A stretch of DNA of 64,000 nucleotides. It comes from an uncultured Candidatus Poseidoniales archaeon. Lineage in GTDB: Archaea > Thermoplasmatota > Poseidoniia > Poseidoniales > CAYMED01. A program made the translations under genes and the position numbers. The notes under the pieces were generated by a model. That model made no database searches and was not told the origin of the DNA. It saw nothing but the letters and a program-made list of their open reading frames with translations. This document shows positions 12,981-47,671 of this stretch, one piece after another (position 1 is the stretch's first letter; each line of letters opens with the position of its first letter). The DNA is taken from NCBI GenBank assembly GCA_964389655.1, contig CAYMED010000005.1, positions 33,081 through 97,080 on the forward strand, in the 5' to 3' direction.

Positions 12981-15900
12981 GTGGATGATCACGAGAATGA
13001 GATAGATCGGTCGCCTCCGGTCGCTCTCGGCTTTCTAGTTCCTCTTGTTGCCGTACTTCTAGCATGGATGGCAGTAGAGGTGGCTGGAGTCGATAGCCTT
13101 CGGATGGAAGGGATAGAAATGAACTTGGGCGTGTTGTTTGCCGCAGCAGCGGCTAGCCTAGTAACTGCCCGCATGGTGAACCTCCCGAAAAACTCTTTTT
13201 TCACGCCCGTCCGCTTTAGTGGCTTGTTGCTCATTGGAAGTGCAATTGGTGTTTGGTGTCTTGTAGAATTTACCTACATCATTGTGTGGGTTGCCATTCT
13301 TTGTGGTCTTCTTCTAGCACTTGGACATTCTGCGTTAGATCGCGGACGCTTTGAGGAATGGACGATTGCAATTTTTGCGATATCTGGATTAATCGCAGCG
13401 GCTTATGTCGGTGCTTGGTCAAGCGAATATGCATATTTACCAGATTCAAGAACAGATACGGATGAGGATGGCTTGCAAGATTGGTATGAAAATTCCAGAA
13501 TGGAGCACCTCGACAGTAATTTGGCGGACCTTTCCAAGAGCGGGGGTGACACGATTAGTCCCTTCGAAGCAACTCATAGCATACGACCTTCGGAAGGGAA
13601 CTGGACAAATCTAAGCATTACGATTCCACCAGTAGGCGATGATTCTCTTGGGCATTTTGCAGTATTAATCGTCGACGATGACACAGTGTCTAGCGAAGGG
13701 CCCATTTTTCAATCCGGAAGTGCATATGCCTCTCTTCAAAGTGGAACCTCTTCTGTAGGCAGAAACCAAAATGGCTTTTCTTGGACAGGGTCTTATAATT
13801 TTACAGAAACCACTGGCCTTACCTTGGCACTTTCGACTGCATCTCAAACAGGCAGGATTGAAGTGGTCTTGATTGAAATGAATTCGGGCGAAAATCTTGC
13901 AGATGCCTCAGCTAGGGGATCATCTCTTCTCTCAGTTACACCAAAGTTACTTGACCCTGCCTTTGCCGATAGCAATGGTGATGGGATCAGTGATGCTTCT
14001 ACAATGCTCGAAGGCAATGAGCAGGCTGAAGGAAGTATACAAATGTCTTTGGGCGTTTCAGAAAATACAATTGTTGATGCCAAACGCTTGATTACTGGAC
14101 AACTGTTTTTTGCAATTGTCTTCACTTCAATTGTGCTTGGATTCTTAGTGGCAGTATTGCAACGTGGCATTCTACTTCCTGAGGGAAGTGCTGGCTGGTG
14201 GTCATTCATGCCGCAGCCCTCTGGGCGTACACCTTCGCGGGCAGCACTTCCACTCTATGTTGCCCTGTTTGCTGGCGTGCTTGGCTTTTTGCTCGAATTT
14301 ATTTCATTTTCACTGGCAACGCCAGTGGAAAGAATTTCGCAAGTAATGCCTCAATCTGTGTTCTGTGCTGACGAAACTGGCTTCGGCTCTCTGTTTGGCG
14401 TAAATTGTGGTGTACATTTCATCGGCTCATGGTGGCCTATTCTGAATTTTGCAGCCAGTCTTATCATTGCTTATTTGTGGTCTGAAAGAATGCGCACGAG
14501 AGCGCTAATGGGCGGTGCTACATGGATTCTCTATACGGCTAGTTCATGGCAAGAAATGGGTATGTGGTCAACTCCAATCTTAGAAGGTAGTTCTGGAAAG
14601 TTACTCTGGTTTGGTATCACCTTCATCACTTTCATTGCGATTTATCTTTGGTCGACTCATGAGAAATATGGGCAATGGTCTCCGAGGAACGAGCGCGGTC
14701 AGGCTAGTATGTGGTTATCTTCTCATGGACGTACTGTCATGCTGTGGACTGCGTTTGCAGTAGGGCTTGCAGTTCGGATTCAATGGAACGTCGTACCTGC
14801 CATGAATGCTTCAGGAACTTCTGGCTGGGACATGACTGGTGGATCTGACCCATGGTACATGAAACGAGCTATCGATTATGTTCTTGCCCAGCATGCTCAT
14901 TTCATGTTTGATCCAGATCGGGCCTATCCAATTGGTGACATTAATCCACGACCTCCACTATTCGGCTGGAGCATCGCCCTAGCGGCAACATTACTCGGTA
15001 CTTTGACTGGGATGGATATTCAATCAGAAGCCGTTTGGTGGGCCCTTGGCTTCATGCCTGCCTTTTTCGGTGCACTCATTGTTTTCCCGATTTATGCATT
15101 GACAAAGGACGTATTTGACAAGAATTCTGCGATTATTGCCTCTTGGTTGATCGCATTGATGCCAGGTCACGTTAGCCATAGTACCTTTGCACTAGCAGAT
15201 CACGATGCATATGTTTTGCTTTTCCTTTCACTTGCCTATTTCTGTTACCTGCGTGCGGTAAAGGAAGCGGGGATGGACCGTCTAGTGAAGAAAATATCTT
15301 GGCGCCCACAGCATATTATTGCAGCATTTAGTGCGGTGCATCGAGAGCGACCAAAGGCAGTAATTTGGGCAATTCTAGCCGGAATCTCGATGGCAGCAGT
15401 TGCTCTTGGTTGGAAGGGTTTTGTGTATGGTCTTGGTATACTCTATATCGCATTCTTCTTGCAAGTTGCAGTGAATCTATTCCGCAGAACTGATTCAACG
15501 GCCTTGTCAGTGATTATGATTGAGATGCAGTTGGTTGTAATTCTTATCTCATTGCCCTTCTATGGGCATCCATCATTGGGTCTTCTTTCGGATCCAACAG
15601 GCTTCCAACCTTTGTTCTATATCTTTGGTTTTACAGTAGTAACTGCATTTATCGCAGTATCGTACAGGGACAAACCTTGGCTGCTTGTTCTAGGAACAGG
15701 TATCGCTACGGCTATGGTATTCTTGGTCACTCTTTGGATCCTTCTTTGGGCAGATATCTCCAATGCCTGGAATGTGTTGTTCACAGGAGGTGGATATTTC
15801 AGCAAAAATAAGATTTTTGGAACAATTGCTGAAGCACAGGCTCCAGCACGTGGTGTGCTATTCGGATCTTTTGGCCCATTTGTGGGTATATTTGCCCTAT

Positions 15901-23186: not shown

Positions 23187-23210
23187 TGACCTGTCACGTT
23201 TTCGACAGGT

Positions 23211-24473
23211 TTGATGAGGGGACCAATCCGTGGGGTCGAGTACCTTTCTGAGCCAGACCTTCCACAGGCTTACAGCGCCATTGACCCTTTGGCAGATGGG
23301 TATGGGAGTAATGATGGGCGAACGAGCCGCCCATTGTGGCGAGATGGATTAGATAACGTTCGTTCCTCAAGACGCTCTTCGCGAAGGTCAGGGATCAATA
23401 TTCTCTTCATTACTTGCTTGGCCCTATTAGGCTGGTCTGCAGCACCCCCTCTTTTTGGAATGTGGGGTGACCTTCTTGAAAGTGAATTAACCGATTCTGA
23501 TGCACTTGAATGGCCTTTTGTATCAAGTGGTATCTATGCCTTAGCAGAATCCGAATCGCTGACGGGAAAAGGCGTACGCGTTTGTGTCGTTGATACTGGG
23601 ATTAATGCAAACCACCCGGATTTTTCATCGACAAAGATCGTATTTCGAGATTTCTTGGGCCTTTCTGAAGTACCAATTGATCGTGCAACTTCGACACACG
23701 GTACGATGATGGCAGGCCTTCTTGCAGCAAATGGGACTCTTCGTGGTGCAGCACCCGATGTCACCCTCCTTGTTGCAGTTGCTTTGGGCGATGATGTTGC
23801 CTCATCAGGTACGGATGATCGCGTTTCCCGTGCAATAGAGTGGTGTTGGAAAGAGCAAAATTCTGACATTATTTCGTTGAGCTTAGGTGGGGCTGCTGAT
23901 GTCAGCAATCCAATGGGTTCTCGAACAGTGGAACAAGTTGAGATGGCACTAGATCGCGGTGTCTTTGTCGTAGCTGCAGCTGGAAATGATGGTGGAGCGG
24001 GTGATGATGGATTTGTGGCTACGCCTGCAAATGTGGATGATGTAATTGCAGTTGGCGCCATATCAAGAAATAGTACTTTGTGGGATTTCAGCAGTGCAGG
24101 GTCCTCGATTGAAGGAGCGAGTGGAAAACCTCGGCATGCCCCTGATCAAAAGCCAGAACTCGTAGCCCCAGGTGCTTCCATTATTTCGACTGGTGCAGGC
24201 GCCCTATATTTTCAATCATCGGGTACCTCTGATGCTACGGTATTCGTAACAGGTGCGCTAGCTCTTGTTCTTGAGGCTGAACCAGAACTTCAGAGTTCAC
24301 ATCCTCGCGCAGGAAGGGGAACAATAGCACTCGTCAAAGAAGCGCTTAAATCGAGTGCACAGCCAACACCTTACCAAGCAGAAAGTGGGCACGATTTACG
24401 CTATGGATATGGTGCACTAGATGCCGTAAAATTTCATGCAGAGGTTTCTGCTGCTCTGAATTTAAATTCCTGA
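23211..24473 (+). CDS. Membrane-anchored S8 subtilisin-like serine protease
   Basis: Catalytic triad motifs VVDTG, HGTMMAG and SGTSDAT, oxyanion AAAGND, KPELVAPG, YGYG; one TM near aa 62-80. Start uncertain. Confidence 0.9.
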   Translation: MMRGPIRGVEYLSEPDLPQAYSAIDPLADGYGSNDGRTSRPLWRDGLDNVRSSRRSSRRSGINILFITCLALLGWSAAPPLFGMWGDLLESELTDSDALEWPFVSSGIYALAESESLTGKGVRVCVVDTGINANHPDFSSTKIVFRDFLGLSEVPIDRATSTHGTMMAGLLAANGTLRGAAPDVTLLVAVALGDDVASSGTDDRVSRAIEWCWKEQNSDIISLSLGGAADVSNPMGSRTVEQVEMALDRGVFVVAAAGNDGGAGDDGFVATPANVDDVIAVGAISRNSTLWDFSSAGSSIEGASGKPRHAPDQKPELVAPGASIISTGAGALYFQSSGTSDATVFVTGALALVLEAEPELQSSHPRAGRGTIALVKEALKSSAQPTPYQAESGHDLRYGYGALDAVKFHAEVSAALNLNS

Positions 24474-24724
24474 CTTATCCTCCCAACCGATTCCTTGATT
24501 ATGTCCGCCTATGTTGCTGATTCAGCAGGGTACACGGTCCTTGAATGGATTCTCCTTGCACGTAGCCTTATTTTGGGCTCATTTCCTGATACATTCTGGT
24601 GTATTCGATCCCTTTTCCGATACTCCTGCTGCATATTGATTCCGCGCCACCAAGCATGGGAGAGCAGCCATCCATTCATCGATTCAGAATTCTTTGGGAA
24701 TAGGGGCTCGTGGACCAATGGGCC

Positions 24725-24730
24725 TTATAA
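24725..24730 (+). promoter_or_regulatory. TATA box for a probably leaderless transcript of 24755..29221
   Basis: TTATAA begins 30 nt upstream of the ATG, matching archaeal TATA-to-start spacing. Confidence 0.55.
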
Positions 24731-24754
24731 TCGAATGCAAAGGGTGCACGCCTG

Positions 24755-27700
24755 ATGATGTCCTCGCGCCCTACCGAGTATCGCTCCCCTCGCAAGACAC
24801 TTGTGATGTTGAATGTCTTGATTTTCAGTGCACTTGCCATTGTGCTTGGTCCTATATCGTCCGTTTCTGCAGCCACAGCGGCAGGTGAGATCACGGGAAT
24901 GGAGACTTGGTCAGGGACACATACAGTTACTGGTGACATTCTCATCCGGACGGGCGCTCAAGTCACAATTCAACCAGGGACGACAGTTAGCATGGCGAAT
25001 GGATCAAGCATTACCGTGCAAGGAAATTTGTGCATTGCGTCTACTTGTGCATCACAACCCGCATCTGCGGGTACATCGCATGTCCGCTTCATTTGGCAAG
25101 CGCCTGCAAATCCAGAAGCCTATGGTGAATGTTATGGTAAAATCCTGAGTAGAGCCGGTACGGCTTCTAAACAAGTATGGTATAGGGACCCAAGTTGCGG
25201 TGAGGGCATAATTCTCGAAAATTCAATTGATCGTAGCATTTCAATATTTGAGAATGTCACTTTCCAAAATGCATATGGCATTCCTTTTCTGACAAAAGAT
25301 GGCACAATTCACTCGGCAGCGCTAGTTCTCTCAGGTCCATCAGTTGACCTTAGAAACATTGAATTCAATCAAATTAACACTTCCAATTTATTGGCAACAG
25401 ACAACACTGTGGCAAATATAGTGAATAGCAAATTCAGCGTTGGCGTAGATGAGAATGATGCTGATAGAGGAGCAATAATTGCCTACAATTCTGGCGGTAT
25501 AACACCTTTCTCGATATCTTATTCCTCATTTGAGGGGACTGGTCGCGGATGCGGGCAAGGTTCCAATGCGCGTAGCGTACTTTGGTCGGAATTGAGTTAT
25601 GTTCAGCTGGTCGGAAATCAGATTCCAGGTGGGGATTATGGTTTTTCATTCAAGGAAAGTACCGGTATCGTTCGTGAGAATAATTTCCAAGTAACCTGTA
25701 ATGGGATCGATCTAATGGGCCAAAAATTACTCAATCAAGTTCCATCTGCCATGGAGATTCGTGAAAACACATTCAATTCTCAACAGGGGTCCCCGGTAAC
25801 CGCTTATGATAACGCATTTGCTGTCATTGACAGTAACAAGATGGAAGGTGCAGAACAAGGCTCTGGAGTCCAAGTCAAAAAGTCGATCGTTCGTATTTCA
25901 AATAATGTGATTGGCCCAATTTCAGGTTTCAACGGCATCTGGGTCTTAGGTCAAAGTGAGGTTGTGATTGACAACAACACGCTCACTGGAATTTCTAAAG
26001 AACCCATTCTCCTTAATGAGTATCAATTTCGCAGCCAAAATGCTCCAGACCCCAAATATGCCTTGATCGAGAATAATGTCATTGATGACGTGCAGGGTAC
26101 GTGTAGTGGCTCAACATTGACTGGTGTAGATGAATATCCATGCCCCGCGATAATGGTATACATGGCAGCAGCAACGATTTTGGACAATACAATCTCAAAT
26201 ACAGTTACTGGGATTGATGTTCGTGGAGGGATCGTTGACGTTCGAAGGAACAATATTTCCGCCACCGGATCTGCTTTCTTGGTCAGACATTATGATAACA
26301 AAGACAGCCGTGTTGCAGGTGCTTCTCCCAATGACGAATTTGCCGCATTAGGATATTTTGAGAATAATGACCTCTCAAGTCAGGCTCCTTCTCAAGCCTA
26401 TAATGTGACAAAGTCAAGAGTGTTGGTGCAGTCTGAGTTCGTGCCAGCAACAATTGGACAGCCAATTCGTCTATCTTGGGAGGGATATGAGAATGAAAAT
26501 GTATCTTTATGGCCTAGCCTTCTCCCTTATGTGCCTGCATCTTTCCCGATGGATGTACGAGTGCAAGCAAATGCAACAATTTTCCAATTTGCGGACTTGT
26601 CGAATTTTGATATTTCAAAGATCCAAGTCAGCGCAGGTAATCCTTCACCTTGGGTAGTTCAGGTGCAGCGGAGCGAATTGGTTAGGATGCAGGTGAAAAT
26701 TAATGGTATCAAGGTTAATGATGCAGCAGTAGCTGTAAAAGATGCCATGGGCATAGAACTATTCAATGTCACTACTGACACATTGGGTTTTACGCCATGG
26801 ATCTCCTTGCCAAGTGATTTTCACCTAGATTTCAGGGGAAATGGGGATAATCCAAATCAGCAAGTGGGAGATCCCGGAGAGAATTCTTGCTCAGATGGGT
26901 TCGATAATGATGGAGACTTGGTAATGGATCTGCAAGACCCTGATTGCCAAGGTGGGGCCACTCGAGAACTCTCAAAGTATAATGTATGGGCATATAAATG
27001 GGGTGTTGGCCGGCATGATTCATCATTTACGCTCACAGGATTTAGGGATACAACAATCGATTTGTCCAATCCAGCTCCTTCTTTGAGTGTTGTACAGCAA
27101 GATGGAACTTCATTTGCCCGAGAAATTTCAGTATCTGGTTCAGCTCATGATGGCACACGTAGGACCACGTTCAACCATGACTGCCGCTTACTTCCAGATC
27201 GTTGTACAATTGAGCAACAGGCCTCAATGGGGGGGACTGTTGAACGTGTCGAAGTTCAACTTCCAAATACCAATTCATGGATCGCTCCACGATATGGTGT
27301 GGATACATCAGGTGCGCCATCTGGAACTGGGCCAGATACTGTCAATCACACTAATCATCCCTACAGTTATTGGTCATTCAACTACGATATGAGTGGTGAG
27401 CAAGAAGGTGATTATCTCTTCAAATTTAGGTCATTTGATGGAAATGACTACGGGGCCGAAGTGGAGAGGGTTTTCAAACTCAATATGGAAGCCCCTACTG
27501 TCTATGTGGATACACCTGGTGATGGTGCAACATTTGTTGCAGGGTCAGGTTCCGGTGGTTCGTCAATTGTTACATTTAGTGGTTCTGCGACAGACCGATA
27601 CAGTGGTTCATTTGGCGCAAGTACGGTTGATACGAGTGATATATCTCACATATGGATACGAATTACCCCCCCCACGGGAGCAACAGAGATCGCAAAGACA

Positions 27701-29221
27701 CCAGGCGGCCGCGCTTGGTCATGGTCTTGGGACTTCTCGAATTGGGCCTCGGGAGAGTATATTTTCGAAATTTGGGCCTCTGACGGGGATTTCTGTGACA
27801 GAGAATCGACTGCGGACTGTCCTCCTGTCGAGTTGAAGATTAACATCCAAAACTCGAACAAGGCTCCTACCCCTCCTGAATTTGAAACAATTAATGGAAA
27901 TCCGATAGGTTTCAGTGATGCCGTTGAATTTACGACCGGGCCTGCAACGTCTATCTCGGGCACGGTAACTGATCGTGATGGGGGTAATATCTCTCGAGTA
28001 ATTGCAGAATATCGCTCGAAGCAGGCCGCGGTAGATGCGCCTTGGACTCAGATATACAATGTCAACCCTCCTGTTCCTCCATCGAATACTTGGTCTCTCA
28101 CATGGGACACCACCAGTTTGAGTGATGCTTACACTTACGACTTACGTGTTCGCGCCTATGACGAAGATGATGCTGCGAGTGACTGGGCAATGCAATCTTT
28201 TGTCGCGTTGAAGCCAGGTGGTGGCGGTATCAATAGCCCTCCGACCTTCAACAATACGGGTTGGGAAGGTGTGCTCGAATTGATGTGTGATCCATATTCT
28301 TCTAGCAGTCAACGTTGCGGTCCAGCAGGGGAGGGCTTGATCATTGATCTGGCTAGGTTCATCGAGGATCCTGATGACGACCGTATCCAAGTTAGGCCAT
28401 ATATCCCTTCTGATGCAACATCAATTGAGAAGGCAAGATATGAGTTGGTGAAGTGTACGGGGAATCTGGTATGTGTATACAATCCATCACTTGCAGCAGG
28501 AATTACTCTTGCCGAAGATAATCTTGCAGATTGGTGGATTGAAGGATTGAGGTTTGAGTTCTCTGATCTGCTTAACGATCCCATTTATTCTGATAAAATT
28601 GATCTCAGAATTCTTGAACAACCCTTTGTTCTCCTTCCTTCATCTGATCCCGTATCTGAAATGGGGGGCGAATATCGCGGTATTGGCCTTCCCCTTTTCG
28701 AGGTACACATCATCGTGAATGGTTTGAAAAAGGATGAAACTCAGGTTGACAAAGATGGTTATTGGGCTTTAGAATTGCAGCGAACATGGTTAGGTGTGGG
28801 TGATAATAAGATTGAGTTCACCTATTGGAGGCCGGAAACCAATATCGCGGAGCAAATGATTTCAGCAGATCCGATCATCATTGAAGGCGATGCAGACCGG
28901 AGTTTATTGTCGATTGCTTTCAGTGAGGAGAATGAAGTAATTTCATGGAGCATAATCGGTGTAATCTTACTTGCTCTTTTGGTCATTGCTTTCTTCGCAT
29001 TCTTTGTCGAGATCGAGGAAGATGGTGCCGAACCTGACTTCCCAGATTCAACGCAACAGGGCAAGGCTCAGGATCCTTATGCATGGGCGCACCAAGCACA
29101 AGTTAGCGATGCTAGTTTACCAGTTTCACCGGCATCTGCACCACAGGAGCAAGCTCATACTGCGCCAGGATGGCGCTGGGATCCAGTTGCAAACCAGTGG
29201 GTTCCTGACGATTCACAGTGA
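24755..29221 (+). CDS. Large surface protein: right-handed parallel beta-helix, Ig-like domains, C-terminal TM and cytoplasmic tail
   Basis: Signal peptide; repeated I..N.I/F strands (IRENTF, ISNNVI, IDNNTL, IENNVI); CSDGFDNDGD..D..DPDC metal-binding loop; Ig-like W...WDT motifs; TM; tail ending GWRWDPVANQWVPD. Confidence 0.8.
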   Translation: MMSSRPTEYRSPRKTLVMLNVLIFSALAIVLGPISSVSAATAAGEITGMETWSGTHTVTGDILIRTGAQVTIQPGTTVSMANGSSITVQGNLCIASTCASQPASAGTSHVRFIWQAPANPEAYGECYGKILSRAGTASKQVWYRDPSCGEGIILENSIDRSISIFENVTFQNAYGIPFLTKDGTIHSAALVLSGPSVDLRNIEFNQINTSNLLATDNTVANIVNSKFSVGVDENDADRGAIIAYNSGGITPFSISYSSFEGTGRGCGQGSNARSVLWSELSYVQLVGNQIPGGDYGFSFKESTGIVRENNFQVTCNGIDLMGQKLLNQVPSAMEIRENTFNSQQGSPVTAYDNAFAVIDSNKMEGAEQGSGVQVKKSIVRISNNVIGPISGFNGIWVLGQSEVVIDNNTLTGISKEPILLNEYQFRSQNAPDPKYALIENNVIDDVQGTCSGSTLTGVDEYPCPAIMVYMAAATILDNTISNTVTGIDVRGGIVDVRRNNISATGSAFLVRHYDNKDSRVAGASPNDEFAALGYFENNDLSSQAPSQAYNVTKSRVLVQSEFVPATIGQPIRLSWEGYENENVSLWPSLLPYVPASFPMDVRVQANATIFQFADLSNFDISKIQVSAGNPSPWVVQVQRSELVRMQVKINGIKVNDAAVAVKDAMGIELFNVTTDTLGFTPWISLPSDFHLDFRGNGDNPNQQVGDPGENSCSDGFDNDGDLVMDLQDPDCQGGATRELSKYNVWAYKWGVGRHDSSFTLTGFRDTTIDLSNPAPSLSVVQQDGTSFAREISVSGSAHDGTRRTTFNHDCRLLPDRCTIEQQASMGGTVERVEVQLPNTNSWIAPRYGVDTSGAPSGTGPDTVNHTNHPYSYWSFNYDMSGEQEGDYLFKFRSFDGNDYGAEVERVFKLNMEAPTVYVDTPGDGATFVAGSGSGGSSIVTFSGSATDRYSGSFGASTVDTSDISHIWIRITPPTGATEIAKTPGGRAWSWSWDFSNWASGEYIFEIWASDGDFCDRESTADCPPVELKINIQNSNKAPTPPEFETINGNPIGFSDAVEFTTGPATSISGTVTDRDGGNISRVIAEYRSKQAAVDAPWTQIYNVNPPVPPSNTWSLTWDTTSLSDAYTYDLRVRAYDEDDAASDWAMQSFVALKPGGGGINSPPTFNNTGWEGVLELMCDPYSSSSQRCGPAGEGLIIDLARFIEDPDDDRIQVRPYIPSDATSIEKARYELVKCTGNLVCVYNPSLAAGITLAEDNLADWWIEGLRFEFSDLLNDPIYSDKIDLRILEQPFVLLPSSDPVSEMGGEYRGIGLPLFEVHIIVNGLKKDETQVDKDGYWALELQRTWLGVGDNKIEFTYWRPETNIAEQMISADPIIIEGDADRSLLSIAFSEENEVISWSIIGVILLALLVIAFFAFFVEIEEDGAEPDFPDSTQQGKAQDPYAWAHQAQVSDASLPVSPASAPQEQAHTAPGWRWDPVANQWVPDDSQ

Positions 29222-29238
29222 TGTAAGAAGGTGACATA

Positions 29239-31788
29239 TTGACTCATCCAAGACTTGGGGTGCAGGAACGCATTCTTCTTCATTTGCGAGATCATGCAGA
29301 CCATAGAGAATCTGTTGAAGTTCCATTCAGTGTATCACAGATGGGCATCGCAAATGCTGTCTCGATTGCTCGCAGTAACGTGCCTAGGGCTATTGCTTCT
29401 CTCAAAGATGATGGGTTATTGATTGAAAGACAAGCTCATGTAACTGGCGTGGCTCGAAAAAGGAAGGCATATTTCCTCACGGACGATGGATTGCGAGTTG
29501 CGGAAGATACTCACCAAGATCTCGCAGTACGGCCCTTGCGAGCAATATTACCTGAGGGAAAGACCATCAATGCGACATTTGGGGAATCTCCCGATGTTCT
29601 ACCTTTCCCAATGCGGCCCGTAGATATTATTCGGTATTTAGATGAAAGTGGTCTTTTAGACTTACGAAACTTAAATTCAGATCTAATTGAGCGGGATTTA
29701 TCAAAAAATATTGAGAAGCAACTTGTAACTGTTACCGGTGACCTTCCGCGCGTGCGTGCTTTCTATGGACGTGATCGAGAATTAGAGAATATGGTCTCTT
29801 TGCTTGAGGCGAGACCTACCTGTTTGCTAGTCCCGGGTATCGCAGGAATTGGGAAGACCACTTTAGCTGCAAAAATGATTGAGGCTTTTACACATAGGCG
29901 CAATCTCCTATACCATCGATGTCAGGATTGGGAGGGCCCCCGCGCTTTCCTTGATTCAGTAGGTGACTGGTTAGTTGAAATCGGAGACCCTGCCCTATCA
30001 GACTATTTAGCTGCAACAGCAGTTCCTCGCCCAGATGAGGTCGTTCGCATTCTTTGTGGGGCATTTGCTGAGATTCCTTGCTTGATCGTGATTGATGATT
30101 ATCACAAAGTCGCAGATGATGTTTTGCACAACATTATCAGAGGTCTTGTTCTTGCACTTCCGTCTACTTCTGATATTGGATTGGTTGTATTCAGTAGATC
30201 CTTCAGGGAAGTTCTTCCGATTAGTGATGCAGTTGGTACACTCCTGACACTCGTATTTCCTCTTGATGGCCTCGACCCAGATGCATCACGCTGTATGTTG
30301 ACCTCACTTGATGAGATTGATGATGTCCAATTTTTGCAAATTTATGGCATTACACGGGGACATCCATTGGCACTTGAACTGGTCAATCGTGGGGCTTCAT
30401 CGGCAACATTTCATGGTACGCTTGAAACATACGTTGAAGCAGAGATCCTTTCGAGATTAGAGGCTGCACAAAAACGTGTTTTATCGGCCTTAGGCGTGTT
30501 TCGAGAGGCTGTGCCAGTGGACTCTTTACCGGATGAGCCGGGCCTTGCAGATATACTAGATGAATTGGTAGATCGTGGTCTAGCCCGTGAATCGGATGAT
30601 GGCGTATATGATGTCCATGATTTAGTTCGTGAATTCGTACTTCGCTCGATTGAACCTCGAGTCCGTCGAGACTTGCATATGCAAGCTGCGAAATGGTATC
30701 ATGGACACAGAAATTCACTTCCAGACACCCTGGAATACCTTCACCACCTTTCCCTTTCAGGCGATCATGATGAAGTCGCCCTCGAAATTATCGAAAGTGG
30801 GCAAGCATTGGTGCGCGCTGGGCAAATGGAGTTGGTTGAAATCATCCTCGGCCTTGATGAATCAGTGATTCAACCGCGTTCTTGGTGTGAAGTCAAATTA
30901 ATCCATGGTGATTTACTAACACTTCAGGGTGAATGGGACCATGCTGAGGAAGCATACTCAAGTGTTGTTGGTCTTGCAGAAAGCCTTGGAAAACGGGCAC
31001 TGCTTGCGCGCCTGCAATCTAGTCTTGCAGATCTGATGCTCCATCGAGGTCGCACTTCAGAAGCACTGTCGCTTCACCTAGATGCTTTAGAGGCATTCAT
31101 CATGCAGAAGGATGCAGTTGGTTCTGTTCGAACTTACAACAACATAGGGGCAATTCAACGCAGGAATCAGAACCGAAAAGCAGCACTAGAGGCTTATGAG
31201 AAGGCAGAAATGGTTCTATTGGATGAAGATCCAAATGACCTTTTGACTGGGGCTAGACTGACACTTGCGCGTGCATTTATTGAGATCGATGAGCTCGATC
31301 GAGCGCGAGATCACGCAATGATCGCATTTGAACAGGCAAATGGTATTGATGATGCACTTATGATCGCGCGAGCCCAAGCAACTCTAGGGAGATATTATGC
31401 ACGAACAGATGAATCCGATCTTGCTCTCCATCATTATTCGCAAGCCCTTGATCGTCTCGGTGACTTGGGTGATCCAAGAAGTGCAGTAGAAGTATCTCTG
31501 TTACTTGGAGATGTTCTAGTGGAAACAAATCGTTCTGATGAAGCCCTTGAGCGATATCGGGAGGCTTTAGCCATGGCTGAAGCGAATGATTATCGGATGC
31601 TCATTGGTGAGATTCTAACGCGCCTTGGCGATGCAGCAACAGATCGGCAGCGCCAGGCAGAATACCTGAATCGTGCGCTTAACGTCTTTCGGGAATTAGG
31701 TGCGAAGTCAAGAATGCAAGAAGTTCAAATGCAAGTGCACAGGGCACTTACTGGGCGAGATTTTAGAACCCGGGCTGAGACAAATTAA
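29239..31788 (+). CDS. wHTH - STAND/NB-ARC-like NTPase - TPR protein (MalT-like signalling ATPase, putative regulator)
   Basis: N-terminal HTH (IANAVSIARSNVPRAIASLKDDGLL), FYGR..EL, Walker A GIAGIGKTT, Walker B LIVIDDYH, GHPLAL, VHDLVRE, C-terminal TPRs. SD-like AAGGTGA before the TTG start. Confidence 0.85.
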   Translation: MTHPRLGVQERILLHLRDHADHRESVEVPFSVSQMGIANAVSIARSNVPRAIASLKDDGLLIERQAHVTGVARKRKAYFLTDDGLRVAEDTHQDLAVRPLRAILPEGKTINATFGESPDVLPFPMRPVDIIRYLDESGLLDLRNLNSDLIERDLSKNIEKQLVTVTGDLPRVRAFYGRDRELENMVSLLEARPTCLLVPGIAGIGKTTLAAKMIEAFTHRRNLLYHRCQDWEGPRAFLDSVGDWLVEIGDPALSDYLAATAVPRPDEVVRILCGAFAEIPCLIVIDDYHKVADDVLHNIIRGLVLALPSTSDIGLVVFSRSFREVLPISDAVGTLLTLVFPLDGLDPDASRCMLTSLDEIDDVQFLQIYGITRGHPLALELVNRGASSATFHGTLETYVEAEILSRLEAAQKRVLSALGVFREAVPVDSLPDEPGLADILDELVDRGLARESDDGVYDVHDLVREFVLRSIEPRVRRDLHMQAAKWYHGHRNSLPDTLEYLHHLSLSGDHDEVALEIIESGQALVRAGQMELVEIILGLDESVIQPRSWCEVKLIHGDLLTLQGEWDHAEEAYSSVVGLAESLGKRALLARLQSSLADLMLHRGRTSEALSLHLDALEAFIMQKDAVGSVRTYNNIGAIQRRNQNRKAALEAYEKAEMVLLDEDPNDLLTGARLTLARAFIEIDELDRARDHAMIAFEQANGIDDALMIARAQATLGRYYARTDESDLALHHYSQALDRLGDLGDPRSAVEVSLLLGDVLVETNRSDEALERYREALAMAEANDYRMLIGEILTRLGDAATDRQRQAEYLNRALNVFRELGAKSRMQEVQMQVHRALTGRDFRTRAETN

Positions 31789-32242
31789 TCGTAATATTTC
31801 CATCATTTAGAATTACCCAAACTGTAGATACGCCATCGAGTCGAACTTCGCCGCTGTGGTTGGTTTTACCAGCACCGCTAATCCGTCGTATTTGGTCGAA
31901 TTTTGAGTCAACTAAACTGTGAAGTCTGACTTCATCATCTGAGATTATGAGTCGTAAATTTAGACTTCCTACTTCAGCCACTTGCAAATTCACAGGCTCG
32001 GCATATGTGGTCCCATTTGGTCCAAGACTAGCATCTTCAGCTCGTTCTATGGCGGAAGAAATGTGTTCCACATCAAGCCTCAGTGCTTCGTTTAGCCAGC
32101 GGTCTTGTGTTGCATTTTCAATATCCCATACCCATAGGCTAAAACTCGCCAAAAAAGCGACACCAAGTAAGAATGTGAATATATACCCTAGTTCGATGGA
32201 TGCAGCATTCTCATCATGATATATTGCTCCATCCTTCTTCAT
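31763..32242 (-). CDS. Small pilin-like protein with class III signal peptide-like N-terminus
   Basis: DENA/ASIELGYIFTFLLGV followed by a hydrophobic helix; ATGA overlap with the upstream gene; GGTGA SD. Confidence 0.6.
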   Translation of the reverse strand: MKKDGAIYHDENAASIELGYIFTFLLGVAFLASFSLWVWDIENATQDRWLNEALRLDVEHISSAIERAEDASLGPNGTTYAEPVNLQVAEVGSLNLRLIISDDEVRLHSLVDSKFDQIRRISGAGKTNHSGEVRLDGVSTVWVILNDGNITINLSQPGF

Positions 32243-34485
32243 GACATCACCGCAGCATATAGTTCAATGTCGGCAGTCTGTAATCCAAAAATTACAGGTC
32301 TTCCTTGTACATGGTAGATGAGTTCTGTGCCTCCAGGGCTAGGGGGGTCTGGAATCCACCCCGCATAGTCATTGAGTCGCTCATCTAGTCCTGGGAAGAG
32401 GAGCCAATCCTCCGAAAAAGCAAGGTTTTCAGTTGCCTGAAGGGCAAATGCAGAGCCATATGGGCCAACCCAGCCGCGTCTAACCTCATATGCGGTACCA
32501 CTAACCCAGCTCGTGCGCCCTTCGAGTTGGAGGTCCAAATCAGCAATTCCTTGCCCGATGGCAGACCCTGCAGCCTCGTGAATTCGGGGGACCGTAATGG
32601 AGAGCCGGGGGCCAGGGCCAGCTCTTTCACTTGGCAAGTCGAGTATTTTCGGTCGAAATTCGGGGTGATTGGTTCCGACCATTCCACCTGCTGTGCGCAC
32701 TTCCAAGTCCCTTCCCATTGTTTGATACGAATACGTCAGTGCATTGAGGGGAATTATCCATCCTCTTCCAGTTCGTTCTAATTTGTCATTTACAGTACTC
32801 CATGTATCTATTTGCAGTCCCGAGGGGTGTTTTCCCAAACGGATGTCACGCACGATTTCAGATATGTCAAGGCCCTCTGCAGAATTCCAAGGGATCTCAA
32901 AACGTATCCACCCACTAGCGCGTAAATCAAGTTCAATACATCTCTTCCATCCATCACTGGGTATTGGTATTATTCCATCATCGCCAATAATTTCAAGGAT
33001 TCGAATCGGCTGATTTGTAGATGATATGTTCAGCCAATCCCATGACTCACTGAACTCGGTGGATGATATTGTTGAAGTTGGTGTTGTAAGGTTGAGTTCT
33101 GTTTGGGGCCTTTGGATGAAATTAAGGATTGTGGCAATGGTTTCTTTACCTGATAAGATGACTTCGACAGAAGCATCATTATGAGTTGGTGATGTGGGAT
33201 CTCCCGCACTTGCCATTGGCATTGTAAAAGCGCTCCCTGAGATCTGTTTTGTATCACTGGCACTTCTCCATGTAAGGGATCCTTCTCGCCAAGATCCAAT
33301 TGCATTTTTATCCGTTGTCGGGAGCCATTGAACCTCCAAGTTTCCAGAAGCTATGACCCCTCCAACCTCGTTTCCCGTCCAACTTGCTCGAATCGCTGAG
33401 GATGGGGGGACGGTTAGGACACCTCCCCCTACTTCTGCACTAACTGTGCCTGTATGTCGGTTAATTAGCAGCAAAGTTCCTTCTATAGGGGGTGGCGAGA
33501 AATGGCGGCCAGAACTTGCTCCTCCAGACGTGGGCCATGTTATGGCTCCATTGCTAGGGGTGGATGTGTTATCTGACCATAACATGATTATGTGGGCAGG
33601 CCGACTTGTTTGGATTTCGACCCTTGATGTCTCGAATGTGGCGTGTGTGATTGAAGCAGTGCCGCTGTGGCCCCATTCTCTCTCTCCACTTTGCGTGCCA
33701 ATAGACCATTCAAGTGTGCCTGGCCCATCTGATATGGCGTGTAGAGTTAGATTTCCCTTTGGAATTCCAGTGATCCAGTTTCGCCCCTTGCCATTTTGCT
33801 CGATTTTAGTGGGCTCTAGTAACGCCGCTCCTTCTTGTCCTCGAATTCCCAGCAAGTCAACCATATGGCTTGAAAGTAGTGTTGTCGCACCACGATTAAC
33901 TGGCAGCTCGATTTCTAATGCTCCGGTGGGTGGGAGTGTGTATTGCTGGTCTTGAGCATTTTCCATTTGAAGTTCAAGTTGTAGTGGTTTGGCCTTTGCA
34001 GAATTGCCATTCGAAGATAGGACAACACGGTCTAGAGACAATGGAACTACATATCTCATGGGGGCAATTGGATCAAACCGGAGATCGGATAAACAAACGG
34101 TTTGCAAGTCCACATTTGGATGCTGAAGTGCGATTTCGCTATCTCTATCGTGTACGTCATCAAGTCTGAAAGATGTATTTGGAATGTGTGTCATGGTAAA
34201 CCAAGTGCCACCTGGTTCGGGGTCCCATCCTATTTTCCCTTCAATCCCTCGCAAATGAGAGGTGGTTTTTTCTCCTTCAAGACCACTTTCTGCTAGTGTT
34301 TGTATCTGTGTATTTAGATCACGCATTTGCTGGGATATTGCTGATTCTTCGATTGCTCCCTCAAGCTCTTCAATTACTGGAACCATTGCTGTGAGCATAA
34401 TTGCGATTATACTGAGTACACCTGCAAAAAGCATCACCGTCGCTATGGCGGCTGAGACGGCTTCTTCGTCTTTAGATAGAATCAT
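32239..34485 (-). CDS. Large (748 aa) archaeal type IV pilin-like protein (minor pilin/adhesin)
   Basis: KDEEA/VSAAIATVMLFAGVLSII class III signal-like N-terminus, amphipathic helix, long beta-rich body; GGAGG SD; ATGA overlap. Confidence 0.7.
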   Translation of the reverse strand: MILSKDEEAVSAAIATVMLFAGVLSIIAIMLTAMVPVIEELEGAIEESAISQQMRDLNTQIQTLAESGLEGEKTTSHLRGIEGKIGWDPEPGGTWFTMTHIPNTSFRLDDVHDRDSEIALQHPNVDLQTVCLSDLRFDPIAPMRYVVPLSLDRVVLSSNGNSAKAKPLQLELQMENAQDQQYTLPPTGALEIELPVNRGATTLLSSHMVDLLGIRGQEGAALLEPTKIEQNGKGRNWITGIPKGNLTLHAISDGPGTLEWSIGTQSGEREWGHSGTASITHATFETSRVEIQTSRPAHIIMLWSDNTSTPSNGAITWPTSGGASSGRHFSPPPIEGTLLLINRHTGTVSAEVGGGVLTVPPSSAIRASWTGNEVGGVIASGNLEVQWLPTTDKNAIGSWREGSLTWRSASDTKQISGSAFTMPMASAGDPTSPTHNDASVEVILSGKETIATILNFIQRPQTELNLTTPTSTISSTEFSESWDWLNISSTNQPIRILEIIGDDGIIPIPSDGWKRCIELDLRASGWIRFEIPWNSAEGLDISEIVRDIRLGKHPSGLQIDTWSTVNDKLERTGRGWIIPLNALTYSYQTMGRDLEVRTAGGMVGTNHPEFRPKILDLPSERAGPGPRLSITVPRIHEAAGSAIGQGIADLDLQLEGRTSWVSGTAYEVRRGWVGPYGSAFALQATENLAFSEDWLLFPGLDERLNDYAGWIPDPPSPGGTELIYHVQGRPVIFGLQTADIELYAAVMS

Positions 34486-35540
34486 GCAAGTACCTCCACT
34501 CTCTGAATGATGACTGTGAAATCGACATTTTTCTCAGTTGGGTGGATGGCGAGGTGCCTCCCATCTGTGTGGCCGGGTTCTGGCCCGAAACCCGTGAATG
34601 CCTCCTCAAGCCCCAACGAGCGAAAGAGGGCATGTTCACTTCCAATACGCCGCAATTGCATTGTCAGTGCGAATGCATCTTCTCCTGGTTCGGCGGATAT
34701 TCGCACATTCCTTCCTTCACCATCAAAAAGTGTGGACGGCCCTAATGATTCAAGCACAAATGAACTATCTTGTTGTAGTGATGCATTTGCATCTACTGTG
34801 ATATCTAGCAAGACTATACTTGCTTGTCCCTTACCATTTGGGAGGATTTGGTGGCGAAGACGTGGCTCTCGAATAATCTGCGGTAAATGGCCTGGCTGAT
34901 CTTCTACGCGCCCTCCGTTTACGAGGTCAATTCGGTGCACCCCTCCTTCTAAATCTCCTTCTGCCCGTAACCCATCAATTGCTACATGCACAATTCGGTG
35001 AATTGGTGAATCTAGCCGATCATAGATGGTTAACACAATCATCCTATCTCCTAAACTGGTTAATTCGATGGTAATTTCTTCTCCTTGGTCATTTATTGAC
35101 ACTTCAGATGACCCTTGATCTCGTTCAATCACTACTTTTGCCATGGTGCCATTGACTGATTGAAAAATCGCCTTCGTTCCTTCAAACCTGCTTTCGATAC
35201 GATCATAGCCTTCCAAATCTGCTGAAAAAGTCCACTGTTCTGCTCGAATGAGCGGGCGGATATTTGCTTCGCCAACATCGACTTGGAAGGCCCATTGCGT
35301 ACCATTTGGAGCATCTGCTGCGATCTGTGTTCGTTCTTCTAGTGCTTCTGATCCAACCATCATCATTGACCATTGGCGTGTGTCATCAATGTCGTCGAGA
35401 TAAGGAGCCAATACTGCAAAAACGCCGACCATGATGCTCAGCACCATGGCTAGGAGGAGAACGACGCCAATGACTTCGCTGACAGCCTCCTCCCGTGTCG
35501 CAGCGCGACGCATGAAGATGATCCTAGCCTCACTCCTCAT
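34482..35540 (-). CDS. Archaeal type IV pilin N-terminal-domain protein
   Basis: REEA/VSEVIGVVLLLAMVLSIM matches the AVS.VIG.VLL signature of archaeal pilins. Confidence 0.8.
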   Translation of the reverse strand: MRSEARIIFMRRAATREEAVSEVIGVVLLLAMVLSIMVGVFAVLAPYLDDIDDTRQWSMMMVGSEALEERTQIAADAPNGTQWAFQVDVGEANIRPLIRAEQWTFSADLEGYDRIESRFEGTKAIFQSVNGTMAKVVIERDQGSSEVSINDQGEEITIELTSLGDRMIVLTIYDRLDSPIHRIVHVAIDGLRAEGDLEGGVHRIDLVNGGRVEDQPGHLPQIIREPRLRHQILPNGKGQASIVLLDITVDANASLQQDSSFVLESLGPSTLFDGEGRNVRISAEPGEDAFALTMQLRRIGSEHALFRSLGLEEAFTGFGPEPGHTDGRHLAIHPTEKNVDFTVIIQRVEVLA

Positions 35541-36352
35541 GAAGTTGGCCCCTGAGGTTTCACACCCATTTGACCCACCCCTATTTCGATAGTGTGATCG
35601 GGTCCTTCCTGCCCGCTAATTATGAGTTCCCCTTCGAAGCGGTCCTCAATGGCGCACAAAACTTCACTTTCTGCGGCATGTGGGCGGTTATTCATTTGGC
35701 TAAGGTGTATCAGGGTGATTGAGCGGAGTTCAGGAGTCCATGCATCTGACAGGATCGCGGCTGTTTGGGCATTAGACAAGTGCCCACCGTTTGAAAGAAT
35801 ACGTGCTTTTAGGTGTGATGGATATGGGCCCGAATTTAGGAGGCGTGGGTCATAATTTGCTTCGATAGAGATGTGCTGGCACCCGCGTAAATGGTTGATT
35901 AGTTCGACAGAACCTGTGCCCAGGTCGCTAACAATTGCAATCCTCACGCCAGTGCGGTCACTGATCACGAAAGCGACATTTTCTGCGCCATCATGGCGTA
36001 CGGGTATTGGTAGCGCAGCCATTTTGTCTCCAATATCTATCCTCTGGAGTCCTTCAAAAGGGTGCCAATCGATTTCCTCTCCGAAATTAAGTGCTTCAGC
36101 AGTGCGCTTGTTTGCATAGACTGGACACCCCCATCTGCGGGCGGTTGCCATGGCCCCCCCTCCATGATCGCCGTGGTGGTGACTGACTAGAATCGCATCA
36201 ATTTCAGAAGGATGCACTCCGATTAGATCCAGCCTATGTTCAATCCGACGAACGCTGAAACCTTGGTCGACAAGGATCATGTTGCTTTCAGAACTAATGA
36301 GTGTTGAATTCCCCTTGCTACCTGTGCCAAGATGTGTGATTTGTAGGGGCAT
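35537..36352 (-). CDS. MBL-fold metallo-hydrolase (YycJ/WalJ-like, putative nuclease)
   Basis: LGTGSKGNS, VDQG, SHHHGDH (HxHxDH), HD, DLG, EANYD, YP..LK.RI...GHLSN and HLS..NN. Start moved to MPLQI (36352), which has TTCAAA 30 nt upstream. Confidence 0.9.
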   Translation of the reverse strand: MPLQITHLGTGSKGNSTLISSESNMILVDQGFSVRRIEHRLDLIGVHPSEIDAILVSHHHGDHGGGAMATARRWGCPVYANKRTAEALNFGEEIDWHPFEGLQRIDIGDKMAALPIPVRHDGAENVAFVISDRTGVRIAIVSDLGTGSVELINHLRGCQHISIEANYDPRLLNSGPYPSHLKARILSNGGHLSNAQTAAILSDAWTPELRSITLIHLSQMNNRPHAAESEVLCAIEDRFEGELIISGQEGPDHTIEIGVGQMGVKPQGPTS

Positions 36353-36552
36353 GGAATGTGGGCAACGCGGGCGGGGTTTGAAGTATACGTTATGTCTGGC
36401 ACAAAGAGGCACATTATTGAGCGGAATGGCATTTCTCGCATGAGGGGAAATGAGTCACGTCGCTACTTTAGTCCGAACCGTGCTCCATCATTATGATAAG
36501 GACCCCTGCATAGTTCCGATTATCCAGCGGACGCGCTGTAGGTGATGATGCT

Positions 36553-39500
36553 ATGCGCAACAAGCAAACCTCGGCTCTAATGGTGCTGGTAATTGTGGGC
36601 GGCCTTCTTGCAGCACCCCAACTCAATACATCTGCGCCGATAGGGTCTACTGACCCCTCTGAAGCACAAGGGGGAGGGCCGCCAGTGACGGATAGTGATC
36701 GCGATAAGATACCAAATGTCTTTGAAGACCGATTTGGCGTCGACGTTGAAGTCACTTCGTCAGATGGACGTTCAGTTCAGGTACGCGGCCTTGACCCACT
36801 GAACGCTTCTGATAATGAAACTGATTTTGATCGTGATGGCCTGACCGCAATTGAGGAATATTGCTGGCCTTATGCACTTGACCGATGCTTCACTAGTCGT
36901 TCGGGCCAGACGGGTATCTTGGACTTAGATACTCAACGCCGGGTCTATCTTGATCCTACATCGGGAGATAGCGATGGAGATGGATTGCCAGATGGTTATG
37001 AAGTGATGATGTGTGCTGAAGTTGATGGTTCAAAACAAGTTGAGGGTGCGTGGGATTGCGCAAAGTTCGACCCACTGAATGCAAGTGATGGTAAAGCAGA
37101 TTATGACCTCGATGGATTTGATGTTGACCGAGATGGGATCCTTGAAACTGATGAGTACTTTTCAAACGCGGAGGAATATTTGTTTGGTGCTCCTGACAAT
37201 TGGACAACTGAGATTGATGGCCTCAGATATGGCCCTAATGTTTTCGGTGAAGATGACTGGTATGGGACAGACCCGCTCAAAGGAGATAGTGACTCTTATG
37301 CGTGGGCTCCGAATTATCAGCGCCCTTCTCGATTGACTTTGACGGGGGATAGCATACCTGATGGATGGGAAGTTTACTTTGGCCTTGACCCTCTAAATGC
37401 TTCTGACAACATCCTTGATGCCGATTCAGATGGATGGGATGAAGATGGCGATGGTGTTGTGAAACAACAACTTACTCAAGCGCGCATCCATCTCGATGAG
37501 GCATTCAGCAATCTTGAGGAATATCAGGTATTTCTTGACGATGGAACATGGGTTGAAGGTGGCCTCAAGTTTGCTGAAGTATCTTTGAAGGATGATGCTG
37601 ATGTTACTGTTCTTGACCAAGGTGATCTCGTATCCCCTATTGCGCATTATGATGTCAGAAGTCTCGCCTTAGACGAGGATCTGGGCATGGTATATGTAGG
37701 CGCGAGAACGGGTGTAAGTGTGCTCAAATATAATGAAACAGGGGCACATGAAACTCAAACAGTCCCTATGCCAACAGGCGTACGAGTCAATGAAATCCGT
37801 CTTCACCGCCCAGAGAATGCTACTATGGGTGTACTAATTGTTGCAACATCTACTGATGTGCGCACACTCCCCATAGGTAATGATGGTTGGATCACAGACC
37901 ATATTCCACTAGCTGTCTTGGATATTGGTAACACCACTTTGCTTCGTACGTGGAATACAGACCCGGACTCTTTTGACCATATTCTTGCCTTTGGACCAAA
38001 TGTAACCATGCATCGCATTGCGGTAGGAGGTGATGGCTCAATTCCATTTTCCAAGGTGATTCCGATTGATCAAGGCCCTCTTATTACCTCTCTCCAATCA
38101 GGTGGTGTTGTTGTGCAAGATGCGTTGCACATCACAGGGAGTTCATCACGGCCAGATGAGATTTATTTTGGTACAGATTTAGGTATGCTACGAATTAGCG
38201 CACTTAATTTAACAACCGACGTTCCTGTATGGCTGTACGGCTCAAATGGGGTAACTATTGATGTGTCGAATATTTCGATAGGCATTGACACACTTTCCAA
38301 TCGAGAAGCAGTTGACACTCGTGCTTTAGTTGCGGATGGGCCAGATGGTGGTGAGGCCACTAAGATTTGGATTGCTGCAAAATCAGGATTGCATAGTCTC
38401 AATTTGTTTACTGGTGATATAGACCCAGAGATATTATTGAGCGGCGATGACGTTCTTCGAGGCAACGATTTGTGGTCGGTGAAACCTCTTCCCCGTGATG
38501 ATAAAATTTTGCTTGGATCGACATTTGGAATGTGGGCCGCATCCTATGCTCAACCAAATATTGGTGCAGAAACTGTACAAACAAGAATTCCTGGCCGAGT
38601 TGTAGATATGGTAGTTCTAGAAACATCTGATGACTCAGTAGTGTTTGCTGCCTGTGATCCTGGCCAATTTGCGAACATTGTGTTGATGGACCCTAAGAAC
38701 AATGATTCCGACTTTGATGGATTGCCGGATGGTTGGGAATATATCTACGGACTCGATCCCTCCGACCCCTACGACGGCCGCGAAGATAGTGATGGGGACG
38801 GTCTAGACTTAGACCTTGACGGATTTGTTGACCGTCCTTGGACAAATCGTGATGAATTTGAGTACCGCCCTCTAACGATTAATGGTACCAATACAACAGA
38901 CCCAAGAAATCCAGATTCGGATGCTGATGAACTTCCAGATGGAGTCGAGTTCTACGGCGAATTTGGCCAATTAACTGATTTCAGTTGCCACTATCTAGAA
39001 GATGGAACATATGTGTGTGATGCAGATCTTGCCGCATCATGGCCTGTGGGGACCCCACTTCCTGGTGAAGTTGCTCGGCAAAATTATGCACTGATTTCAG
39101 ATCACCCCACGGATCCTAAAGCAACAGATAGCGATGGGGATGGGATGCCAGATGGTTGGGAGATCATGAATCGGAGATGGATCGGACAGACTTTCTCCGG
39201 AGCAAATTCATGGACTCTTGATCCCAATGACCCGAGTGATGCGTGGCTTGATGCTGATGGCGACGGTTTGGCGAATTTATGTGAATACAACTGGACGAGA
39301 GATCGTGACCTGACAATTGCAGGTACATTAAAAATGTTCAATGAGGACTCTGAATCGGCCCTAAATTGGAGTTTATCCGATCCAAATTTAATCGATAGCG
39401 ATGGGGACGGTCTTCCCGATGGATGGGAAGCACGAATGGTGCCCGGGCAAAACAAGTGTGATTGGAAATTACCCAACCGCGGTATTAATCCGCTGAATGG

Positions 39501-47671: not shown

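Follow-up and report, generated by a model that had tools for sequence, protein, structure and literature searches.

A conserved neighbourhood of giant envelope genes around a doubly anchored AglB in Poseidoniales

Results

We analysed a 64-kb stretch of DNA (the window, whose positions are used throughout) from an uncultured Candidatus Poseidoniales archaeon, focusing on a block of ten open reading frames (ORFs) at positions 12981-47671, on contig C5 of the host genome (G000; 2.1 Mb, 93% complete). The block encodes a giant AglB-type oligosaccharyltransferase (OST), a subtilase, a beta-helix surface protein, a STAND protein, three pilin-like proteins, a metallo-beta-lactamase (MBL) fold hydrolase and two further giants, one with Ca-binding repeats and one with a membrane anchor. 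An earlier note on this DNA, made from the sequence alone, had proposed that these genes form a coordinated module that builds, glycosylates, processes and regulates a Ca-dependent surface coat or attachment apparatus. All ten ORFs were found exactly where that note had placed them, and a Pfam/NCBIfam profile search of the block proteins agreed that the cytoplasmic members are a winged helix-turn-helix (wHTH)-STAND-TPR protein and the MBL hydrolase. The description of nearly every gene as envelope-directed holds for eight of the ten, whose products begin with a signal peptide, a membrane anchor or a class-III-like peptide; a C-terminal transmembrane (TM) segment is also present in AglB, in the beta-helix protein and in a 1742-aa protein.

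Giant ORFs dominate the block. In the host genome, 71 ORFs reach 1000 aa or more and have a hydrophobic segment at the N terminus; they account for 15% of its DNA, and the same class of ORF covers 74.5% of the bases in the block. The block tops all 35-kb windows of the genome (0/1901 match it), the runner-up reaching 55%; the concentration of giant secreted ORFs here is above chance. Giants elsewhere in G000 are often clustered as well (C10:47308-62472, C9:31416-40712, C2:80633-94372 and C11:29421-49546); one has 5055 aa, and many of them end in an anchor or contain DxDxDG arrays.

The first gene of the block (12981..23186, plus strand) encodes a 3401-aa AglB/STT3 protein of family GT66 (Pfam STT3, E 8.8e-16, plus CarboxypepD_reg). 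It scored 58.8 bits with PF02516 (cut-off 24.5) and 20 bits with the AglB_core-like profile, below the cut-off of 27. An N-terminal extension of ~600 aa with extra TM helices precedes the GT66/STT3 core, which has DPWY at residue 623, DHD at 740, WWDYG at 1205 and DNFQ at 1223 (segment DNFQTG after WWDYG). The best match in the PDB was Archaeoglobus fulgidus AglB-L (AfAglB-L; 3waj, E 4e-14): the two TM-core motifs DPWY and DHD align to its GGNDPWYYYR and NDH, and the catalytic motif WWDYG aligns with the WWDYG of 3waj. The core is followed by an extracellular, sequon-rich stalk of ~1900 aa, a C-terminal TM segment at 3371-3389 and a basic tail. Residues 1600-3370 contain 62 sequons (z=12, scored, like the other sequon counts below, against shuffled sequences). 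This AglB was the sole STT3 found in a search of the host genome.

Relatives were searched in 40 genomes from three families and 15 genera (n=41 with the host); the host family (f1) is distinct from two large families (f2 and f3), and one other f1 genome was among those searched. All 40 contain AglB ORFs of ~3200 aa. In 10/10 outgroup Thermoplasmatota fetched, the AglB ORF measures 2060-2750 aa and ends in a TM segment and a basic tail. The WWDxG motif lies at 566-822 in these ten outgroups, at ~950-970 in Poseidoniales and at 1205 in the host. Since the stalk and second anchor are seen in all ten outgroup Thermoplasmatota, they appear widespread in the phylum and are probably older than the order Poseidoniales; the N-terminal multi-TM extension reads as a Poseidoniales addition, to which family f1 would have added a further insert. 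In the closed Poseidoniaceae genome G003, the aglB frame (C1, ~1446722-1449322) has 1603 aa as against ~3190 aa in relatives; the gene could be frameshifted or split, or the assembly could be at fault. Doubly anchored giant AglBs also occur in other Thermoplasmatota, some of them with closed genomes, and seem not to have been described before: no description of this form was found in the literature searched, nor one of the locus itself in the literature on Marine Group II (MGII) with AglB, oligosaccharyltransferase, S-layer or thrombospondin. A 9.5-kb aglB is listed without remark in a published supplement (Damashek et al. 2021, PMC9723583).

The S8 subtilase gene (23211..24473, plus strand) starts 24 nt past AglB and encodes a membrane-anchored protein of 420 aa (Peptidase_S8, E 9.6e-46; PF00082, 156.8 bits) with an Arg/Ser-rich cytoplasmic N terminus, a TM segment at ~60-78 and the catalytic domain outside. 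Its Asp/His/Ser triad is intact and in family order (VVDTG, STHGT, GTSDA). An inverted repeat with 7-bp arms, ACCTGTC...GACAGGT, surrounds CGTTTTCG (TTTT loop) in the aglB-S8 spacer (23187-23210); the predicted hairpin could be an attenuator or an RNA-processing element. S8 adjoins AglB in most relatives, and in several the two lie on different contigs. This form of S8, a paralogue with an extended N terminus, is specific to Poseidoniales. In a distant member of the Thermoplasmatota (L156, G044:C13:41092-46375), its closest homologue (42% identity) lies 1.1 kb from a wHTH-STAND paralogue and is separated from it by a UPF0047 gene; in G111, an S8 homologue lies 8 kb from AglB.

The beta-helix surface protein (24755..29221, plus strand; 1488 aa, Pfam Beta_helix) consists of a signal peptide, a right-handed beta-helix at ~44-560, an acidic double-disulfide repeat, an Ig/FN3-like stalk, a TM segment at 1400-1418 and a 70-aa cytoplasmic tail. 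Its AlphaFold2 (AF2) model has a pLDDT of 70 overall and of 80-95 across the helix, and Foldseek returned only generic Ig/FN3 arrays, adhesin extenders and S-layer proteins. The tail (window 29010-29221) contains the motifs DPYAWAK and HPGW(L/I)WD..N.WVPD(PNY), strictly conserved in ~48 orthologues; these Trp motifs may be akin to the W-acidic ligands of TPR domains and to GW hairpins of the DUF2510 type. No orthologue of the protein was found in five outgroup genomes.

Seventeen nucleotides past the beta-helix gene starts the gene (29239..31788, plus strand) for the cytoplasmic, 849-aa wHTH-STAND(P-loop)-TPR protein, with matches to Pfam HTH_Crp_2 (11-65), AAA_16/nSTAND6 (175-306) and TPR_12, the TPR region covering 560-800. 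The P-loop is in place, with Walker A GIAGIGKT at 200 and Walker B LIVIDD at 282. No other gene of the block is as well conserved as this one, which shows 51-55% identity within the order and is present in 41/41 genomes. The family has many paralogues in other Thermoplasmatota, up to eight per genome; in 16 STAND neighbourhoods outside the order, there was no beta-helix or W-tail partner and the neighbours were unrelated. The protein matched no defence system. That a surface protein with a conserved cytoplasmic motif is encoded directly upstream of a TPR-bearing regulator makes it plausible that the two form a receptor-regulator pair.

The next four genes lie on the minus strand. The first gene of this unit encodes a cytoplasmic MBL-fold hydrolase of 291 aa (35537..36412; Lactamase_B, E 2.9e-15; HHHGDH at 78), and three translationally coupled genes (31763..35540) encode pilin-like proteins of 352, 748 and 159 aa with class-III-like signal peptides. 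Three class III signal-peptide proteins had been proposed here, and the evidence agrees: the 352-aa protein (34482-35540) matches Pilin_N (28.1 bits, cut-off 25.2), the N termini of the three (..RAVSEVLGVV.., ..EEAVSAAVATV.. and ..AAATELGYIFTF.., respectively) are conserved in 60-72 orthologues, and AF2 models the 748-aa protein (pLDDT 78.5, pTM 0.80) with an N-terminal helix at residues 7-67 followed by beta-sandwich domains. A fold search with the 748-aa protein returned only non-specific beta-sandwich matches (TM-score ~0.1). The MBL gene is present in 41/41 genomes and directly abuts STAND where the pilin genes are missing; since it is kept when they are lost, it is not tied to them.

The 748-aa gene occurs in 29/41 genomes and is missing from five genera of small-genome Thalassarchaeaceae. 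The locus contains no pilus ATPase, platform protein or prepilin peptidase. The host genome has three T2SSE/T2SSF loci, all outside the window: C12 carries an archaellum operon, C1 a system that includes small pilin-like genes of its own, and C8 a Tad-like locus (C8:26599-29190; L082:7599-10190) with two T2SSF genes, a 414-aa T2SSE ATPase and no pilin gene nearby. This 414-aa class of T2SSE is found in exactly the 29 genomes with the 748-aa gene and is absent from the other 12 (29/29 and 12/12). All pilin-less genomes, which are 1.3-1.6 Mb in size, fall into one clade of the STAND tree (SH-aLRT 100). Because the absences form one clade, the loss of the pilins, the anchored giant and the ATPase can be read as one event; co-occurrence across genomes had been considered as independent evidence and was down-weighted, as one loss explains the pattern. 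An archaellum-type ATPase was detected in G000 and three Poseidoniaceae among the six genomes in which peptidases were sought (see Discussion).

The two remaining genes, on the plus strand, encode giants. The first (36552 being the end of the preceding spacer; 36553..42429) specifies a secreted, acidic Ca-repeat protein of 1958 aa with weak matches to TSP3/TSP3_bac and repeats of the CglD/MtsD type. It has 20 strict DxDxDG loops, TSP3-like repeats, 39 sequons (z=5.9) and no membrane anchor. The gene adjoins MBL and is universal in the order (41/41 genomes); outside it, matches were at the level of the repeats only. Genes annotated as 'thrombospondin' are widespread in MGII and have been linked to adhesion (Rinke et al. 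2019, PMC6461757). The anchored giant (42443..47671, 1742 aa) starts 13 nt past the Ca-repeat gene and has a signal peptide, a TM segment at ~1633-1661 and a Pro-rich cytoplasmic tail. It matched no Pfam family; its nearest Atlas clusters are hypothetical proteins of ~1800 aa and, at 0.92, CARDB-bearing proteins of 1674 aa. Its presence in 28/41 genomes nearly repeats the pilin pattern (29/41), G039 having the pilin genes and no detected anchored giant; the five Thalassarchaeaceae genera that lack the 748-aa gene lack this giant too, and paralogues occur elsewhere at ~25% identity.

Two features that had been ascribed to the exported proteins in general turned out to be restricted. Sequons are enriched in the AglB stalk, the 1958-aa protein and the 159-aa protein (z=3.4), and not in S8, the beta-helix protein (z=-0.5), the 748-aa and 352-aa proteins or the 1742-aa protein (z=1.9). 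Ca loops had been noted in four proteins; strict DxDxDG loops occur 20 times in the 1958-aa protein and twice in AglB, and there are none in the proteins starting at 24755 and 42443. The label 'Ca-dependent' applies to one protein.

Searches of the 40 relatives recovered AglB, S8, the beta-helix protein, STAND, MBL and the Ca-repeat giant in every one (40/40), in the same order and orientation where contigs allow. We also fetched 80 Poseidoniales loci around STAND and judged the order as far as each contig reached. It was invariant in 80/80: AglB, S8, beta-helix and STAND on the plus strand, then, where present, the 159-, 748- and 352-aa pilin genes and MBL on the minus strand, and the Ca-repeat giant on the plus strand. 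In the four pilin-less loci among the 80, MBL abuts STAND, and in the two of these for which enough DNA was fetched (L065 and L066) the next conserved gene comes straight after the Ca-repeat giant. Scattering of the genes in other MGII genomes, which the earlier note had named, together with uncorrelated expression, as the outcome that would speak against its proposal, was thus not seen.

Gaps and overlaps suggest how the block may be transcribed. A gap of 107 nt precedes aglB, with TTAAAA 61 nt upstream of the gene, and one of 281 nt precedes the beta-helix gene, with a TATA-like TTATAA 30 nt upstream. STAND and the 159-aa pilin gene converge and overlap by 26 nt, the MBL-pilin unit contains three 4-nt overlaps, and a spacer of 140 nt separates the divergent MBL and Ca-repeat giant genes. 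The short gaps and overlaps link AglB with S8, the beta-helix gene with STAND, MBL with the pilins and the Ca-repeat giant with the anchored giant; on these grounds, the block reads as about four transcription units.

Transcript values were available from one published table, for SIMO Bin 19-2 (genus O1, with a pilin-less locus; PMC9723583), in which genes 305-310 correspond to aglB (9.5 kb), S8, the beta-helix gene, the TPR (STAND) gene, MBL and the Ca-repeat giant. All six were transcribed, aglB alone being detected in 7/7 samples; in the two best samples the values for aglB, S8, the beta-helix gene and STAND were similar (0.16-0.38) and that for the Ca-repeat giant was ~0.1 (PMC9723583). 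Genes 305, 307, 308 and 310 are listed in the differential-transcription table of this bin (~110 genes), where aglB alone was differentially transcribed (log2 fold change [log2FC] 2.05, adjusted p 0.06); gene 307 had a log2FC of 1.9, which was not significant, and STAND one of -0.05 (PMC9723583). These values lend weak support to partial co-expression and none to a regulon.

Discussion

We consider it probable, with moderate confidence, that the block is a vertically inherited, order-wide envelope neighbourhood in the core genome of Poseidoniales, organized in about four units and not as one operon, and including an accessory layer that was lost once. This reading draws on the domain calls and motifs, the sole STT3, the conserved order, the density of giant ORFs, and the gaps, overlaps and TATA-like box, together with the excess of sequons in both the AglB stalk and the Ca-repeat giant, the conserved tail motifs, the pilin-like fold, the distribution of the 414-aa T2SSE and the transcripts. 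It retains part of the proposal of a coordinated module: the genes are collinear, they include the only STT3, and several pairs are closely spaced. The proposal went too far where it implied a single coordinated system, as the flanking genes are equally collinear, there are at least four units, MBL is independent of the pilins and only aglB was differentially transcribed.

The four units can be tentatively assigned roles. In the first, which comprises aglB, possibly with S8, AglB would probably glycosylate its own stalk along with other surface proteins rich in sequons, the Ca-repeat giant among them, while the membrane-tethered S8 probably trims or sheds surface proteins. The beta-helix protein and STAND of the second unit may act as a receptor-regulator pair. 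The pilins of the third unit, encoded with MBL, are presumably assembled by the Tad-like ATPase and platform encoded on C8. The fourth unit would supply a secreted Ca-binding glycoprotein and, as an accessory, the anchored giant. Together with the pilin genes, this giant would make up an accessory attachment layer that was lost once in a streamlined clade of Thalassarchaeaceae. According to Rinke et al. 2019 (PMC6461757), a 'flagella' operon occurs in every genus of MGIIa and in half of those of MGIIb, and the distribution of the accessory set broadly resembles this published pattern; the match with ArlI-type ATPases in our genomes is inexact. The archaellum ('flagella') operon has been linked to particle attachment.

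Several observations weigh against this reading. In a flank control that spanned almost all of the 64-kb window and drew on one closed genome of the Poseidoniaceae (G003) and two Thalassarchaeaceae (G026 and G036), the flanking genes carS, purD, pcp-Nudix, dnaJ, arcS and rpS15, whose names were cross-checked against a published table (Damashek et al. 2021, PMC9723583), were as collinear as the block itself. Because gene order is generally frozen in Poseidoniales and the whole window is collinear, synteny alone is no proof of coupling, and it was dropped as proof of a module after this control. Beyond the order, homologues of S8, the beta-helix protein, STAND, MBL and the Ca-repeat giant were absent beside AglB in ten outgroup Thermoplasmatota, one of them a genome of the same class, and the giant AglB alone recurs. 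With collinear flanks and no AglB partners in the ten outgroups, conservation beyond background synteny was not found, and the comparison beyond the order is uninformative on functional coupling. The pairing of S8 with AglB (G111) and that of S8 with STAND (G044) were each seen in ~1/15 outgroups and were not repeated elsewhere. Transcripts of MBL were ~ten-fold below those of its neighbours in SIMO Bin 19-2 (PMC9723583). The joint loss of the pilins, the anchored giant and the ATPase counts as a single observation. As for pilus assembly, the A24 peptidase family PF01478 had no match in six Poseidoniales genomes (G000, G003, G011, G013, G022 and G026), the same search being positive in 12/14 controls, and PF06819 (Arc_PepC) had none in G000 and four of the five other genomes; the prepilin/prearchaellin peptidase of Poseidoniales would be either very divergent or missing.

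The pcp-Nudix gene of the flank encodes a pyroglutamyl-peptidase-Nudix fusion (window 49106-50152) whose position downstream of the block is conserved; it corresponds to gene 314 in the SIMO Bin 19-2 table.

Alternatively, the genes could be neighbours by history only, abundant giant genes having landed together and been frozen by a very low rearrangement rate, with no functional coupling. The 71 giants that make up 15% of the DNA, with further clusters on C2, C10 and C11, would provide the material for such an accident, and the collinearity of the whole window, the lack of any conserved neighbour of AglB outside the order and the independence of MBL from the pilins fit this reading. However, the block is an outlier even in so giant-rich a genome, matched by none of the 1901 windows; gaps of 13-24 nt and overlaps of 4 nt imply co-transcription within pairs; sequon-rich substrates lie beside the sole OST; and the lineage that lost a pilus-type ATPase also lost two accessory segments that do not adjoin each other. 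We regard purely historical proximity as unlikely.

At the other extreme, the block could be one coordinated regulon, in which STAND senses the envelope through the beta-helix tail and controls aglB, the protease, the pilins and the giants as an attachment apparatus. The strong conservation of STAND, its start 17 nt past the beta-helix gene, the conserved cytoplasmic Trp motifs, the cohesion of the block genes across genomes and a density of envelope ORFs that is reached nowhere else in the genome would all fit such an arrangement. Yet the flanks are just as syntenic, the genes have separate promoters and lie on opposite strands, the paralogues of STAND found in other Thermoplasmatota lie among unrelated genes, and in the one data set aglB alone changed while STAND stayed level (log2FC -0.05). 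A single regulon is, in our judgement, rather improbable.

We also considered a more speculative role for AglB. It could be structural as well as enzymatic, forming a self-glycosylated arch of ~1900 residues in the glycocalyx of a wall-less or S-layer-poor envelope in Poseidoniales and many other Thermoplasmatota, with processing by S8 and transmembrane feedback through the beta-helix protein and STAND in Poseidoniales; we hold this to be quite doubtful. A reading of STAND, MBL and S8 as a defence island was rejected, since PADLOC gave generic matches only.

Few archaea are as abundant in surface oceans as those of Marine Group II. To our knowledge, none has ever been cultured and their cell envelope is hardly characterised. 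The block offers concrete candidates for components of that envelope: a unique giant OST, a Ca-binding glycoprotein that is universal in the order, a beta-helix protein that resembles a receptor, has a conserved cytoplasmic motif and is encoded beside a regulator, and an accessory set of pilins and an anchored giant. These candidates are directly testable in metaproteomes and glycoproteomes and by heterologous expression.

Comparison with known systems

The pilin-like proteins share with archaeal type IV pilin-like proteins of Tad/Epd-like systems (Pilin_N, DUF7289-type haloarchaeal clusters) their charged-then-hydrophobic class III N termini, the long N-terminal helix and beta-rich head of the 748-aa protein, the coupling of their genes and the presence of T2SSE/T2SSF in the same genomes. 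They differ in that the locus lacks an ATPase, a platform protein and a peptidase, with no A24 peptidase detectable in the genome, in that one 'pilin' has 748 aa and several beta-sandwich domains, and in that the operon is led by the gene for an MBL hydrolase, which is retained where the pilins are missing.

With its DNA-binding domain, STAND NTPase with intact Walker A/B motifs and TPR sensor, the block STAND protein resembles regulators of the MalT/AfsR type. Unlike these, its wHTH is N-terminal and Crp/MarR-like, it is paired with a membrane protein bearing a conserved cytoplasmic tail, and it comes from an expanded archaeal family.

The DxDxDG arrays and the very acidic, secreted, giant nature of the Ca-repeat protein recall bacterial TSP3-repeat/RTX-type Ca adhesins such as Myxococcus CglD/MtsD. 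However, it matches far under the family cut-offs (36 vs 400 bits), is archaeal and sequon-rich, and has neither a lipoprotein nor a type I secretion system signal.

At the level of the locus, the nearest parallel is the agl cluster of Haloferax volcanii with its S-layer glycoprotein, where an OST gene likewise lies among genes for glycosylated surface proteins and surface glycoproteins are C-terminally anchored. In contrast to that cluster, the block has no glycosyltransferase or flippase genes of an agl pathway, and none of the PGF-CTERM/archaeosortase signals was seen in it.

The most unusual part of the block is the AglB anchored at both ends. It shares with AfAglB-L (PDB 3WAJ/3WAK/5GMY/7E9S) a multi-TM core with DPxY, DxD and WWDYG followed by an external domain, with homology across the TM core at E 4e-14, and it is present in a single copy in the host. 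At 3401 aa, however, it is ~4x the 875 aa of AfAglB-L. It differs further in its ~600-aa N-terminal extension with extra TM helices, which is Poseidoniales-specific, and in its ~1900-aa stalk, which combines sequons with Ig/prealbumin-like domains and leads to a second membrane anchor; the stalk and second anchor are common to the 2060-2750-aa AglBs of other Thermoplasmatota.

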